Below are positions 6,001 to 12,000 of a DNA stretch of 29,601 bases, piece by piece. Location of the stretch: the IMG/VR virus record IMGVR_UViG_2657245500_000006, positions 1 to 29,601 of that record; one strand, given 5' to 3'. The position numbers are program-made. The stretch is from a virus. Lineage: Duplodnaviria > Heunggongvirae > Uroviricota > Caudoviricetes. Each line of letters begins with the position of its first letter. The first letter of the stretch is position 1.

Positions 6001-9000
6001 AACATCGACCGTGCCATGCTGCTGGGGGCTCAGGCGCTGGCGAATGCGTACGGCCAGAAGGGCGGCGGCCACTTCAACATGGTTGAGAAGAAAACGGATA
6101 TGGATAACCGTACTGAGATAGCAATCAGCTGGATCAACGGTCTGAAAAAAATCCGTTTCCCCGAGAAGAGCGGCAAGATGCAGGATCACGGTGTTATTGC
6201 CGTTGATACCGCAGTGAAGCTGTGATTTTTCCTTTCCCCATGCCGGGTTATCGCCCGGCTTTTTCAGGAGTCATTAATTATGGCAAAGACTATCCTTGCT
6301 CCGTCACTGAGTGAGCGGGTTTATTCAGGTACGCATGGTAATGAGTCGGTGGCAGAAGGTGTGTTTACAGTGAATGCTGCCGAACAGGAAACCGTTATTA
6401 ATCTTCTCTCACTGCCGACTGGCGTTCGCATTAATGGGATCCAACTGATTTCAAAAGGTGGTCTTGGTGGTACGGCGACCGTCAGCGTTAAATCTGGCAA
6501 GCATGAGCTCATTGGTGACAGTGGTGCAGTAACTGCCAGCTTTGCTAAATATGTGCCAGTGGAGCCGTACACCACACAGAGTGATGGAGAGCTGGTTACG
6601 GTCACCATTAAGACAGCTGCTGCGACCGGTACCCTGAATGTTCTGCTGCGTTATACCGTAGTGGGATACTGATATAAACCTTCCGGCCCGCGTCATGCGG
6701 GCTTTTTTATCCGGGGAATTATATGAGCGAGAAAATTGCCGTTGTCTATATCGGCCCCAAACCCGTGAAAAAGGATACCCTTACCGGCAGTCGTACACTG
6801 TTTCCGCGTCTTGAGCCGGTGCATGTTGACAGCGCGCTTGCCTGGCAGTTGCTGGCCTTTCCGGATGTCTGGGTTCGTCATGAAGAGCTTGATGGTGTGC
6901 TCAAAAAGCAACAACAGGATGAGCAGTTGCGGCAGGCACAGCAGGCGCAGGAAAGAGAACAGGTGGCTCTTGCAGAAGCGGAGAACAGTTTTGTGGTTAG
7001 CGTTGGTGGTCAGGATGTGGATTTGAGCAAACTCACGTCCGCACGGCTGGCAACGTTGTGTGAGGCAGAAGAGCTGGATATTCACAAAGACCCGAAAGAA
7101 ACGGCTGATGCATTTCGTGTCCGTGTGCGTGAGGCATTTCGCCGTCGTGTTGCGGAGACTGAACAGCATGGCGGAACTGACTGATTTTTTGCCTTATGTC
7201 CGTCGTCATATCAGCGGTCCGCTGAGCATTATGATGACGGATGCATTATCCATGTCGGCAGTGGCATTCTGCCGTCAGTCCCTGTTGTGCCGCCGTGAAG
7301 CCACGCTGTCACCGTCAGCCGGAGAGGACTGTGTGCTGCCATATGACGCGGAGAATGAAGAGTGCGTACATATTATTCGTATCCTCGCTGACGGGCGTGA
7401 GCTTTTTGCCGGTCATGATGTGGAAATCCGCCCGGGGCGGGTAATGCATTTTGCCTGTTCGCCCGGAGAGGTGAGTGTGCTTTATGCCGTTGCTCCGAAA
7501 GCAGGGAGCCGTCAGGTGCAGGATGAACTGCGGGCATGGTCTGAAGAAGTGGCTGCAGGGGCGCTTGAACGGTTGTTCATGCAGACCGGGGTTTCATGGT
7601 CAGACCCGTCGCGCGCACAGTATTTCTCTGTGCTGTTTTCTGAGGGTATCCGTCGGGCATATCGCGACACACTGGCGACAAGTCCGTACTCCTCATACCG
7701 CAATCCTGTCCGCAGACAAAGGTTTTACTGATGACGACGATTACTGAAATCATCGGACGAGTGAACACGCAACTGGTTGACCCGATGATGGTGCGCTGGC
7801 CTCTGGCTGAGCTGTGTGATTATTACAATGATGCTGTGCGGGCGGTGATTCTGGCAAGGCCGGATGCAGGCGCAAGTCTGGAGACGCTGAATTGTGTTCC
7901 TGGTGCACGTCAGACTTTGCCTGATGGCGCAATACAGCTTCTTGACGTGATATGCCTCAGCGATGGCAGTGCTGTAAAACCGCAATCCCGTGAGGTGCTT
8001 GATGCACAGTATCCCGACTGGCACATGCTGAGGGGGAAACCGGAATGCTTTATCAGCAGTGACCTTGCCCCGCGCGTGTTCTGGCTGTTTCCGGCACCGG
8101 AGGAGGCTGTGAGTGTTGATGCTGTGGTCAGCCGCATTCCGGAGGCGGTGTATGTTCTGACGCAGGATGATGACACGCCTGTACCGCTGGAAGAGGCTTA
8201 TGTTAACCCGCTGGTTGACTGGATGTTGTTTCGTGCATTCAGCAAGGATGCAGCCGGTGGTGCAGAGTCAGGACTGGCAGCACAACATTATCAGAGTTTT
8301 GTTGAGCAGCTCGGGATTAAACAGGGTGCAGACAGTGCATTGTCTGCCCGCAAGAAGGTGTTTAACGGAGGTGGAATGTGAGTGTTGTTGTTTCGGGGAC
8401 GCTGAAATCTCCTGATGGTGAGGCAATATCAGGCGCAAATATTACCCTGACGGCGCTGACAGTTTCACCGGATGCGCTCAGCGGCACCAGTGCGTCAGCA
8501 GTGACCCGTGAAGGTGGATATTACGGAATGACGCTGGAGCCGGGGGAGTATGCGGTTTCTGTGACGGTGAAAGGGAAGACTGCTGTCTACGGACGTGTGC
8601 GTATTGAGGGGACTGAAAGTACGGTGACGCTCAATATGCTGTTACGCCGCAGTCTTGTTGAGGTGAGCATACCCGGAGAACTGCTGACAGATTTCCGGCA
8701 GATACAGAACAATGTGGCGGATGACCTTGCCACGATTCGTCGTCTGAACGAAGACACGGCGGTGAAAAATAATCAGGCTTCACAGTCGAAGGAAAGCGCT
8801 GCTGCCAGTGCGAAGACTGCATCAGAAAGCGCGAAGGCTGCGACAAGCAAAGCGACGGAGTCTGCACAAAAAGCCAGTGAGGCTGCAGAGGCGGCGACCC
8901 GGGCAGGTGAGTCTGAAAAGGCAGCGGCAGCTGACGCTAAAGAGGCCAGACGACATGCTGAAACCGCCAGAGTGGCTCAGGAGGCCGCCGGAGACGTTCT

Positions 9001-12000
9001 TAAACGTGCTGAGGCTGCTACAGTTAGTGCTGAAGAAGCCAGACGTATGGCTGAGAATGCACGAGGACCTAAAGGCGATACAGGGCCGAAAGGTGATGCT
9101 GGTCCTCGTGGTGAAACAGGTCCGGCGGGTCCGCGTGGGGAGAAAGGTGAGCAGGGAGAGCGCGGACCTCAGGGCATACCGGGCCAGAAAGGTGATACAG
9201 GAGAACGGGGACCTCAGGGAGTGCAGGGGCCAGCTGGCGCAACAGGGCCATCTGGCCCACGTGGTGCGACCGGGCCACAGGGAGCAATGGGGCCGCGTGG
9301 TGAAACCGGGGCCAGAGGCGAAAAAGGAGACCCGGGGGGGCCTCAGGGACCAAAGGGGGATACTGGTCCGAGAGGTGAGCCGGGGCCGGCAGGAGCAAAG
9401 GGAGAGCGCGGTGAGACCGGACCTGCGGGGCCGAAAGGGGAACCCGGGGAACGTGGTCCGCAAGGATTACAGGGCCCCGCCGGAGAGAGAGGTGAACCGG
9501 GTCCGGCAGGTCCGAAAGGTGAACGAGGCGAAGCTGGACCTCAGGGACCTCGTGGGGAGCCAGGCCCGGCGGGCAGCGCAGCAAATGTGGCAGATGCGAC
9601 GACGGCACAGAAGGGAATTGTGCAGTTAAGCAGCGCAACGGACAGTGATGATGAAACGAAGGCAGCCACACCGAAAGCTGTGAAGGCGGCAATGGATGAG
9701 GCCAGGGCAGCGAAACAGAAGGCAGAAGAGGTTGCGACAACCCGCCCGTCGGGAGAAAGCATACCTGGACCGAAAGGTGACAGGGGCGAGCAAGGACCGG
9801 CAGGTCCCACAGGTCCGAAAGGTGAGCGCGGTGAACCCGGACCTCAGGGGCCTGCAGGACAGAAAGGTGAGCAGGGCCTCCGTGGGCTGCAGGGGGCGAC
9901 AGGACCTGCGGGAGCAGTGGGGCCCGCAGGCCCACGGGGACCGGCTGGTGCAGCTGGTCCCAAAGGTGATGCAGGCCCGACCGGACCCCGGGGTCAAAAA
10001 GGTGATACAGGACCTGCAGGTCCGCAGGGACCAGCTGGCCCGGCAGGCCCACAGGGGGTTGCCGGAAGGGACGGCAATGTTTCCACCGGGAAATATGCGG
10101 TTGGTTCTTATGTTTTTGGCGTGTCCTCTGTCTATGCTGACGGCGAAGGCTTATTTTCATCAGGGATATATGAAAACATTCAGGGTAGCTCCATTGATCT
10201 GATTTCAATACAGACAACACAAACAGGCGCATCAACACCAAATCAAATCTGGTTTTTGAAACTGGAGGAGGACATTCCGGGGGTGTGGCGGGCATTTAAA
10301 CCCGCCGCATATATTGATCTGATGCCAGAAGGAATGCAAGGAGGAAAGAACTCGATGTTTAACTTTATTACTCTTTTCCAGCGGATAGCGTAACGAGGTA
10401 CGGCATGATAATAGCGATCAGTGCGGTTAAGGATCCGGTATATACCAGGCAGGGATGTATCAACTGTCTGGTGAAACTCACCGGAGTTGACGAGGAGGAG
10501 ACGGACTGGCTTCCGTTTACGGCGACACCAACGGACGAAGCCCCTCATGGAAAAGAACTCTGGCAGGCACTGAACTCAGGTCAATATGGTCAAATCGCGC
10601 CGTATACTCAACCGGAAGATGCGGTGGAAAAAGCCAGACAACAGAAAATTAATGAGATCAACGCCTGGCGTAATGCGATGGAAGCGGCGAACTACACGTT
10701 TGAGCACAATGGGCGTAAATGGGACTACGGGAAGTCAACGCAGACGCGTCTTGAGCCGTCGGTGGCTGCCGCGAAAGCAGGAATACTGCCGGAGGGTTTT
10801 TTCTGGACGGATGCGGAGAATAACGACGTCCCGATGACGGCTGGGGAGCTGATGGCACTCAGTGAGGCGGCGGAGAAGGCGATGTTCACCAAAGGGATGG
10901 AAATTCATGTCAGACAGCGCACGATGAAAAAAGAGATTGAAGCGCTGGGTGATGCGGAAGCTATACTGGCGTATAAGGTCGGCATGGCTGACAGGTGAAA
11001 AAAAGAGGGGCGCTCCAGCCCCTTGCTACAAAGCTATGGCTAAATAAAGAATACTCAGGTCGAGGAAATAATCTGGCAATGATAATTAAAGGAGATGCAA
11101 CGGCCTCCTTCACCCCTGTCAAAGATAAAAAACTGGGGAGTGCGTGCTCCCCGAGAGCATGATACTTGTGGTTGATAGTTATTTTTATCCGGCGACAAAG
11201 ATATTGAGATGAGGTCGCGGATGCAATACAGAATTTTCGTATTGCATGGTAACTGCTGATTCCTGAAACTGAAAGTCGTCATGAAACTGTAAGCGAAAAA
11301 ACGGGGAGACGGCACGCTCCCCAAGGTCATACATGAGATAGTGGTGTTTTTATAGTCGAAAGAATAATTGCATAAAAAGAGTGTAAATTAAACATTCAGG
11401 GGATACAGAATTTTCGTAGGCTGAGGGATTGCTGAAAATAATTTAGTGCGTCCTTCAATGGTCACTCAATAGTCATCAGATTGTGCTGATGTAAACAGTT
11501 AAGCACAATTTGATTATTTGACTTTCTTCTTTTTGTGACTAACTTCACAATTAAAGATGTAACCGTATACAAATTGTTGATGAATAAAGAGACAGCATAA
11601 GTGGCAGGCCAGTCGTAATGCGGATATCCCTTCGCGAACGTGATATCACCGACGTTATAGTAAGGAAATTCCGAAAAACTTCATATTAAAATTCGGAATT
11701 TCTTCAGGAGTAAGCTCATGATAGCGGCGAGACATCAGATTTTCTTTATATATCCGATGTTGAACTGTTTTATTTGTATACAGATAATTTTATAGGGTAT
11801 ACCACATGAGCAAGAAATTTACAAAGGCTGTTTTGTCTGCGGCAATGGCAGGTGTTTTGTTTGGGGTTAGCTTTGATATTATGGCTGCTGAGCAATCTTA
11901 TTCTGCTTTAAATGCTCAGAACGGCGCTGGGAGTATTTATAAAGTATATTATAACCCAGATAATAAAACGGCACATATTGATTGGGGTGGCTTAGGTGAT

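Follow-up and report, generated by a model that had tools for sequence, protein, structure and literature searches.

Tail fibres with a collagen shaft, variation in the length of that shaft and swapping of the tips that it carries have already been described for the phage protein family treated here (PMC3368898; PMC5155283; bioRxiv 10.64898/2026.04.10.717836). The subject of this analysis is a gene at positions 8378-10393 of a 29,601-nucleotide stretch of viral DNA (IMG/VR record IMGVR_UViG_2657245500_000006, positions 1 to 29,601), the whole of which we refer to as the window and which is the late operon of a prophage. We conclude that the gene very probably encodes the trimeric lateral tail fibre of a short-tailed temperate phage of the 933W/phi24B type, residing in a Sepvirinae-like Escherichia coli prophage. 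Its closest described counterpart is ORF-13 of Stx2 converting phage I, called Stx2Ip020 or EPclB by Ghosh et al. 2012 (PMC3368898), who defined the EPclB architecture as PfN-PCoil-Col-Pf2-Col-PfC. The same work established that lengths within the family differ by multiples of three residues in the collagen (Col) domains and of seven residues in the coiled coil (PCoil), that a G-X-P-G-G-P-X-G break is conserved in the first Col domain, and that the variants EPclC, EPclC* and EPclD bear other C-termini; it also showed experimentally that EPclA is a trimer with a genuine collagen triple helix and a trimeric alpha-helical PCoil (PMC3368898). The kind of protein, its register break and length variation in multiples of three were already published in that 2012 paper.

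Two further systems bear on what such a protein does. The orthologous ORF67 of phage Sp5 is essential for plaque formation and lysogenisation, and immuno-electron microscopy places it at the tail end (PMC5155283). In phi24B, cryo-electron microscopy (cryo-EM) identified the lateral fibres as six gp61 trimers; the modelled N-terminal beta-sandwich of gp61 binds the adaptor gp62 via Lys65 and Lys67, its coiled coil begins at residue 100, and its collagen-like shaft spans residues 243-567, interrupted by a short coil and followed by a small C-terminal domain (bioRxiv 10.64898/2026.04.10.717836).

Layout of the fibre gene and its closest relatives

The original prediction placed a lambda Stf-like tail fibre at 8378-10393, and the open reading frame (ORF) is genuine. 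It encodes 671 residues on the + strand from a GTG start codon that overlaps the stop codon of the upstream adaptor gene, with GGAGGTGG positioned 4-11 nucleotides (nt) 5' of the GTG; close relatives in RefSeq are annotated from the equivalent GTG, and the product matches PHROG 366 'tail fiber protein' at 5e-154. A promoter and terminator scan around the gene gave counts close to shuffle expectation. The gene and the segments of its product are as follows.

8378..10393, + strand: lateral tail fibre gene, 671 residues (Pfam, PHROG 366, RefSeq start)
8378..8677, + strand: N-terminal beta-sandwich anchor domain, residues 1-100 (CarboxypepD_reg, 36.5 bits over residues 5-86; 933W-type homology)
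8675..9064, + strand: Ala/Ser/Glu/Lys-rich predicted trimeric coiled coil ('PCoil'), residues ~100-229 (from its sequence)
9065..9343, + strand: collagen block 1a, residues 230-322, 31 Gly-X-Y triplets (Gly periodicity; Pfam Collagen)
9326..9349, + strand: one-residue register break G-D-P-G-G-P-Q-G, residues 317-324 (Gly periodicity)
9347..9580, + strand: collagen block 1b, residues 324-401, 25-26 triplets (Gly periodicity)
9581..9766, + strand: non-collagen linker, consisting of a Phage_fiber_2 (Pf2) repeat and a short helical Ala/Lys/Glu segment (PF03406, 65.5 bits)
9767..10081, + strand: collagen block 2, residues 464-568, 34-35 triplets (Gly periodicity)
10082..10390, + strand: C-terminal tip domain of 103 residues, all-beta, of an unclassified family and ending ...LFQRIA; presumed distal binding or trimerisation domain

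Gly-X-Y runs cover nt 9065-9580 and 9767-10081, a total of 92 triplets, or ~271 residues when borderline end triplets are left out (Pfam Collagen, PF01391, E = 1e-44). This agrees with the ~270 residues in two linker-split blocks that had been proposed, and the proposed block coordinates were accurate to within one triplet. Pro is the commonest residue at X (42 of the 92 triplets), where Glu and Asp are also frequent, and Arg, Lys, Gln, Thr and Ala are frequent at Y. The blocks had further been called uninterrupted, which does not hold for block 1, since the one-residue break GDPGGPQG at nt 9326-9349 shifts its register; among 48 fibres from IMG/VR and the E. coli genomes that have 85 or more of their first 100 residues in common, the GXPGGPXG break is kept in 47. 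Nor did the idea that collagen has replaced the shaft of Stf survive: a coiled coil of ~130 residues (residues ~100-229) is retained, and the collagen comes after it. The Pf2 repeat of the linker occupies residues 408-449 (nt 9599-9724) and has a further match, at residues 107-153, in the structures of phage Mu fibre S (5yvq and 8ju3).

Comparison with ORF-13 of Stx2 converting phage I places the protein within the family. Residues 1-127 are ~98% identical between the two, the Pf2 linkers are identical, and the coils differ by a single gap of 14 residues (two heptads), the coil in the window being the shorter. In common with EPclB, the fibre in the window has a 933W-type N-domain, a PCoil, a first Col domain with the GXPGGPXG break, one Pf2 repeat, a second Col domain and a small tip, its gene directly follows the adaptor gene, and it belongs to the same type of virion module. 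The two differ in their collagen domains, of 157/114 or 190/114 residues in EPclB and of 57 plus 34-35 triplets in the window, and in their tips, which are unrelated: EPclB ends in PfC (PF06820), of which there was no match in the fibre in the window at E <= 0.01, compared with 120 bits for Stx2 phage I as a positive control. With its non-PfC C-terminus, the protein falls, in the scheme of Ghosh et al., among the EPclC*/D variants, whose C-termini are of other kinds. Sp5 differs from the window downstream of the fibre gene, where it has the short PfC-like ORF68 in place of a gene for a DUF4376 chaperone.

The only phage record to match over the full length is the putative tail fibre of GER2 (AVD99025; Sepvirinae, Oslovirus), with 84.5% identity over residues 7-670. 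GER2 shares the gene order adaptor, fibre, DUF4376, adhesin, and its Col1 and linker are almost identical to those in the window; it differs in a diverged tip, in which 56 of the 93 aligned codons differ non-synonymously. By analogy with EPclA, Sp5 ORF67 and gp61, the protein in the window would be expected to trimerise, to fold its Gly-X-Y tracts into triple helices and to be located on the virion tail, docked on the adaptor; both K65 and K67 are present in its N-terminal domain.

Length variation and mosaicism in the collagen-coding DNA

That fibre length may vary between related prophages was borne out in both sets of relatives that we compared. The first comprises ten E. coli chromosomal loci with the same gene order and flanks that are 97-99.6% identical; here, intact fibres are 591-690 residues long and carry 67, 78, 81, 84, 88, 92, 99, 101 or 102 triplets. 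The second is the set of 48 fibres with the same N-terminus, which represent 38 distinct sequences with 22 triplet totals (52-104) and at least nine tip types. Comparison across relatives thus found a repeat count that is anything but invariant. At 0.286 nm per residue, the collagen would span ~45-89 nm across relatives and ~79 nm in the window.

Between near-identical alleles (9-16 mismatches per ~1.9 kb) we found indels of 9, 18, 45, 45 and 54 nt, and every one of them has a direct repeat of 8-12 nt at its junction. A deletion of 102 nt, equivalent to 11 triplets and one codon, drops the register break and leaves Gly in phase. In strain SW071611 (NZ_CM129855.1; locus L004, 1501-3276), the NCBI annotation pipeline PGAP flags the fibre gene as a pseudogene 'missing C-terminus', yet its 1,776-nt ORF is intact and encodes 591 residues, with 49 collagen residues fewer than in the window, the register break among them; the flag is probably an annotation artefact.

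Superimposed on these indels is a mosaic of alleles. In the protein alignment of the ten loci, the front (residues 1-335) is nearly invariant and is followed by one of two middle alleles, comprising the end of Col1, the Pf2 linker and the start of Col2, and then by one of two distal alleles, comprising the end of Col2 and a tip that ends either ...LFQRIA (103 residues) or ...LFQRAY (92 residues). All four combinations of middle and distal allele occur. At the DNA level, near-identity to the window either stops at 9276, 9388 or 9444 and resumes at 9911, or stops at 9998. All five breakpoints lie within collagen-coding DNA, which is not a significant enrichment (5 of 5 compared with 82% expected over the interval from coil to tip, p ~0.37).

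The original prediction had attributed such changes to a near-perfect triplet repeat in the underlying DNA. Tandem Repeats Finder reported only one 22-nt stretch in the collagen-coding DNA, which holds a 9-nt unit repeated 2.4 times and scores no more than the minimum, and dispersed repeat families are only 60-84% identical. The longest exact internal repeat, of 16 nt, is no longer than expected from shuffling codons within their positions (13.8 +/- 1.8). The tandem-repeat and exact-repeat searches together rule out a near-perfect tandem array. What the DNA does have is a degenerate 9-nt periodicity: base identity is 0.46-0.49 at lag 9, ~0.27 at other lags and 0.25-0.26 at lag 3. The prediction was therefore right that in-frame indels and recombinational exchange both occur in this DNA and wrong as to slippage of a perfect repeat; length varies through microhomology of 8-12 nt within a degenerate 9-nt periodicity, together with allele mosaicism.

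The composition of the collagen-coding DNA accounts for six ORFs of 89-408 residues that overlap the collagen region in other frames.

9069..10295, - strand: antisense ORF, 408 residues, non-coding artefact (codon shuffles; substitution pattern)
8808-9629 and 9696-10202, + strand: other artefact ORFs
8822-9463, 9541-9810 and 9626-9997, - strand: other artefact ORFs

Stop codons are nearly absent from four of the five alternative frames of the collagen-coding DNA, and these low counts persist when codons are shuffled within the G, X and Y positions. In comparisons with relatives, substitutions accumulate at the third codon position of the + frame; between Col1 of the window and that of Stx2 phage I, they number 28, 25 and 97 at codon positions 1, 2 and 3. 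As had been suspected of those on the opposite strand, the alternative-frame ORFs are composition artefacts of stop-poor collagen-coding DNA. In the record of Stx2 converting phage I (AP004402.1; L075, 2871-4699), seven alternative-frame or antisense ORFs within the fibre gene (ORF-14, 15, 16 and 7c-10c) are annotated as hypothetical proteins. The Col1 region of that record also carries an annotated repeat region, 'arrangement ababa' prime', of 231 nt with 33-nt 'a' and 66-nt 'b' units, so that in-frame expansion had been noted two decades ago.

Tips, the DUF4376 partner and exchange between virion types

The genes around the fibre gene, which bear both on its tip and on the type of virion, are as follows.

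1679-3823: P22-like portal
5011-6225: Phage_capsid_3 / 'N4-gp56 family' capsid
7731..8381, + strand: tail adaptor, 216 residues, corresponding to phi24B gp62 (Pfam SU10_adaptor, PF24175, 8.8e-32)
10405..10998, + strand: DUF4376 protein, 197 residues, putative cognate fibre chaperone or cap (PF14301 at 1e-19)
11806-12984, + strand: eibA, 392 residues, YadA-anchor protein
15530-16798, + strand: presumed needle, 422 residues, with a Phage_Tail_Tip domain
17804-18535, + strand: gene for an outer-membrane protein of the Ail/Lom family, a second likely moron
22183-29601, + strand: giant ORF of at least 2,473 residues that runs past the end of the window

The last 103 residues of the fibre have no Pfam or PHROG match, and a sequence search of the PDB returned nothing at E <= 10. 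They do align with the tip of the P-EibA and GER2 fibres (42%), with the LFQRAY tip and with others, and the members of this tip family share the motifs Y-x-[VI]-G-[ST]-[YF]..., PG-[TSV]-W and a terminal [LI]-F-[QER]-R-[IAV]-x and always come straight after a collagen block. The family occurs on N-termini of the lambda Stf type too (P0035, P0037, P0050 and P0053) and on a protein of 1,202 residues (P0086). A word-indexed protein search with the tip alone gave one partial match, and a profile of six tips found only 34 proteins, short and partial. A separate exhaustive search of representative proteins was swamped by collagen columns; among the 150 proteins listed there (mostly distinct 50% clusters), ~14 had the tip at the C-terminus. 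AlphaFold2 (AF2) models of the tip monomer are seven-stranded and all-beta, with a mean confidence (pLDDT) of 67.4, which rose to 74.8 with a richer alignment.

Tip types on the shared anchor of the 48 fibres include PfC, two PfC-like forms and larger globular inserts. Several fibres (L022, L024, L041, L047 and others) have a tip of 134 residues that contains the motif SDKRNK and has a coiled coil at its C-terminus; judged by the motif alone, this tip resembles a self-cleaving intramolecular chaperone domain of the Peptidase_S74 type; with such a tip on the same anchor, one shaft would serve both chaperone strategies. In L017 and L026 (IMG/VR) and in P0050, a globular insertion of ~200-280 residues follows the Pf2 repeat; in L017 and P0050 another Pf2 repeat comes after the insertion, with one more collagen block ahead of the tip in P0050. 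From these arrangements, Pf2 repeats seem to flank insertable globular modules.

The gene directly downstream of the fibre gene varies with the tip. The DUF4376 alleles paired with the two tips of the ten loci are 67% identical, their divergence is concentrated in the first ~75 residues (aligned residues 19-78), the C-terminus is conserved, and in 10 genomes each allele goes with its own tip. Chaperones of the DUF4376/TfaMu type have a variable fibre-binding N-terminus and a conserved C-terminus, and a role for DUF4376 proteins as fibre chaperones has been shown experimentally in Alteromonas phages V22 and A5 (PMC10579305) and in Campylobacter CJIE1. V22 (gp26/gp27) and A5 (gp8/gp9) share with the window the order of SU10-type adaptor, fibre and DUF4376 genes (PMC10579305) and a chaperone with the same variable and conserved parts; they differ in having no collagen shaft and fibres of unrelated sequence, and the E. 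coli DUF4376 protein is so far only a putative cap. Co-variation establishes that the tip and the DUF4376 protein are coupled; by analogy with these homologues, the latter would act as a chaperone. The short C-terminal domain of ~100 residues that had been singled out as the likely binding tip is thus a swappable domain of 103 residues that co-varies with a chaperone gene and fits a distal binding domain; a receptor-binding role for it is plausible.

Exchange of this distal part between virion types is evident from prophage P-EibA of E. coli ECOR-9 (AF151091). The 392-residue product of 11806-12984 is 100% identical to the EibA of that prophage, an immunoglobulin-binding trimeric autotransporter, and the gene order of P-EibA is J, lom, an orf-401-like collagen fibre of 479 residues, orf-191A (DUF4376) and eibA. 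Its fibre (AAF63232), which with ECED1_1138 represents EPclC/EPclC*, resembles that in the window in its two Col domains split by Pf2 and in its non-PfC C-terminus; it has the same break, a type-B linker and a ...TLFQRIV tip that belongs to the tip family of the window and is 42% identical to it. Downstream, too, a DUF4376 gene and then eibA follow. The P-EibA fibre differs in its N-terminus of the lambda Stf type (PF08400, 145 bits) and short coil of ~40 residues, compared with a podovirus-type anchor and a 130-residue coil in the window, and in its location in a lambda-like tail module after J and lom. Near-identity between the two DNAs is limited to 10654-13697. The same distal design and the same neighbours therefore sit on an anchor of the lambda type in P-EibA and on one of the podovirus type in the window, and the phi24B preprint likewise reports that the gp61 shaft and tip recur in the side fibres of a lambda-like phage (bioRxiv 10.64898/2026.04.10.717836). 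Specific to the window is a non-PfC tip of an unclassified family together with its DUF4376 partner, linked to eibA.

The remainder of the window is consistent with a Sepvirinae-like prophage. Its best phage relatives are the Sepvirinae GER2 (Oslovirus) and Stx2 converting phage I (Traversvirus tv933W), at least 80% of its first 25 kb is carried by 49 of 5,426 complete E. coli genomes, and the best of these have 96-98% identity across 92-95% of that DNA. Annotations in relatives include 'N4-gp56 family major capsid protein' and 'phage adaptor protein', and a nozzle gene is also part of the tail module. With ORF-11 of Stx2 converting phage I the adaptor shares 89% identity, and by analogy with gp62 it would be the docking partner of the N-terminal domain of the fibre. 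The product of 15530-16798 probably forms the axial needle and would then correspond to phi24B gp56. Relatives label the giant ORF as an LPD38 domain protein; its counterpart is the 2,793-residue ORF80 of Sp5, which is essential for tail formation and whose role is not known (PMC5155283). The Lom-like gene sits 7 kb downstream of the fibre gene. Between the DUF4376 gene and eibA lies an AT-rich non-coding gap of ~800 nt (10999-11805) with several terminator-like hairpins and a promoter-like site at 11760-11788, and the 1-kb bin 11001-12000 has a G+C fraction of 0.39, compared with 0.52-0.65 in neighbouring bins; from these features the gap looks like a moron boundary, that of an added, independently transcribed gene.

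Rival readings and proposed working of the fibre

That the protein is a true side tail fibre of the lambda type, that is, an Stf orthologue on a long non-contractile tail in which collagen has replaced the shaft, is a reading that we consider very improbable and that genomic context largely refutes. Similarity to Stf, which the original prediction had emphasized, is real: BLASTP against lambda Stf (orf-401) aligns the Pf2 linker with 67% identity over 43 residues (E = 3e-12) and the N-terminus with 35% identity over 66 residues (E = 7e-6). Both proteins have a homologous N-terminal beta-sandwich and Pf2 repeat and an Ala/Ser-rich coiled-coil rod, Stf (orf-401/orf-314) is likewise trimeric, is mounted laterally and has an assembly protein encoded by a gene of its own (Tfa), and collagen fibres of equal build on Stf-type N-termini do exist, both 3' of J and lom in P-EibA and in P0035, P0037, P0050 and P0053. 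However, nothing aligns with lambda Stf beyond these 66 N-terminal residues and the Pf2 repeat, so that its long gp37-like distal region has no match, and Stf has no collagen and belongs to a siphovirus tail tip. The fibre in the window scores 20.5 bits against PF08400 (phage_tail_N), under the cut-off of 26.6, compared with 251 bits for lambda Stf. The gene 3' of the fibre encodes DUF4376 here and the chaperone Caudo_TAP (148 bits) in lambda, and BLASTP detects no similarity between the DUF4376 protein and lambda Tfa. A scan of the genes in the window found no J, tape measure or tail tube gene, and the fibre is surrounded instead by an SU10-type adaptor, a P22-like portal, an N4-gp56-type capsid, a nozzle, a needle and the giant ORF. 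What remains of the description 'lambda Stf-like' is homology in the N-terminus and Pf2 repeat; orthology fails on context, on PF08400 and on the downstream gene. A still different identity, and one that we find hardly credible, is that of a collagen-like adhesin on the bacterial surface, of the Scl, Lcl or BclA type, encoded by a lysogenic-conversion gene and absent from the virion. NCBIfam models for SclB, Lcl and SclA do match at 1e-48 to 1e-60, the BclA structure 1wck matches the collagen region, and the neighbour at 11806-12984 is EibA, a known surface adhesin. Yet these models match the Gly-X-Y region only and score far below their curated cut-offs (205 vs 325, 172 vs 500 and 164 vs 400), and such sub-threshold models were all that NCBIfam gave, which led us to reject this identity. 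In addition, the N-terminus has no signal peptide and is ~98% identical to that of a protein seen on virion tails by immuno-electron microscopy and cryo-EM, and the start codon overlaps the adaptor stop codon inside a structural operon.

Accepting a lateral fibre of the 933W/phi24B type, it is possible, though in our judgement rather unlikely, that its tip is not the determinant of host range, in which case the fibre would serve accessory or reversible adsorption or lie folded against the capsid, recognition of the essential receptor would fall to the axial needle and a protein associated with it, and collagen length would drift neutrally without a phenotype. Several points favour this possibility or weigh against the reading that we prefer. 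In the phi24B preprint, the fibres are oriented towards the capsid, with the tip of the homologous fibre pointing back to it, and the authors argue that the gp61 tip probably does not bind BamA, the terminal receptor, and that flexible collagen cannot relay a triggering signal (bioRxiv 10.64898/2026.04.10.717836). The needle gene at 15530-16798 carries a Phage_Tail_Tip domain. The indels look like simple microhomology events, the breakpoints in collagen-coding DNA are not statistically distinctive, and length variation may be selectively neutral. The presence of the protein in virions is inferred from homologues, and the inducibility of the prophage in the window is only presumptive. Against a purely accessory fibre, at least nine unrelated tip types are grafted on one conserved anchor, each tip tightly co-varies with a chaperone allele, and Sp5 needs ORF67 to form plaques and to lysogenise (PMC5155283). 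Many tips on one anchor, together with co-variation of tip and chaperone, bear the hallmark of diversifying selection acting on a ligand-binding module.

For a lateral fibre with a ligand-binding tip, we propose the following working. The N-terminal beta-sandwich (residues 1-100) would dock on the tail adaptor ring (gene 7731-8381), and the three-stranded coiled coil of ~130 residues would form the proximal rod. Two collagen triple helices (57 and ~34 triplets), ~79 nm when fully extended, would make a thin, flexible distal shaft, with the Phage_fiber_2 knot or short coil between them acting as a hinge. The all-beta tip of 103 residues would cap the fibre, probably nucleating trimerisation from the C-terminal end, and probably contacts a cell-surface ligand. 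The DUF4376 protein (10405-10998) would be a tip-specific chaperone or cap, its variable N-terminal part matching the tip and its conserved C-terminal part driving assembly. The degenerate 9-nt periodicity supplies many short, in-register microhomologies, through which whole triplets are gained or lost and length varies. Through them, too, alleles recombine in frame, and prophages exchange anchors, linker cassettes and cassettes of tip plus chaperone in new combinations, including exchange between podovirus-type and lambda-type fibres.

A bolder version, which we put forward as a doubtful one, is that the 9-nt periodicity has itself been selected as a 'universal in-frame splice zone' for cassette grafting and tuning of shaft length, and that the LFQRIA tip with the N-domain of its chaperone is a receptor-binding module whose fold is unseen in solved structures. 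If true, the splice zone would let a cassette of tip and DUF4376 chaperone, with or without the eib moron, graft onto the anchors of structurally unrelated virions, namely the lambda-type siphovirus Stf and the 933W-type podovirus fibre, and shaft length, about 45-90 nm across relatives, would be tuned to the depth of the O-antigen or capsule of the host.

Altogether, the window adds to the known family a natural series of one anchor with 22 shaft lengths and at least nine tips, an uncharacterised tip and DUF4376 pair tied to the eibA adhesin gene, and direct evidence for movement of one and the same distal cassette between fibres of the podovirus and lambda types. It reveals no new principle, and the series is useful for engineering fibre length and specificity. 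Fibres of this family are carried by the phages that disseminate Shiga toxin and further virulence genes within E. coli, so their tips and lengths are relevant to the question of which strains are open to conversion.

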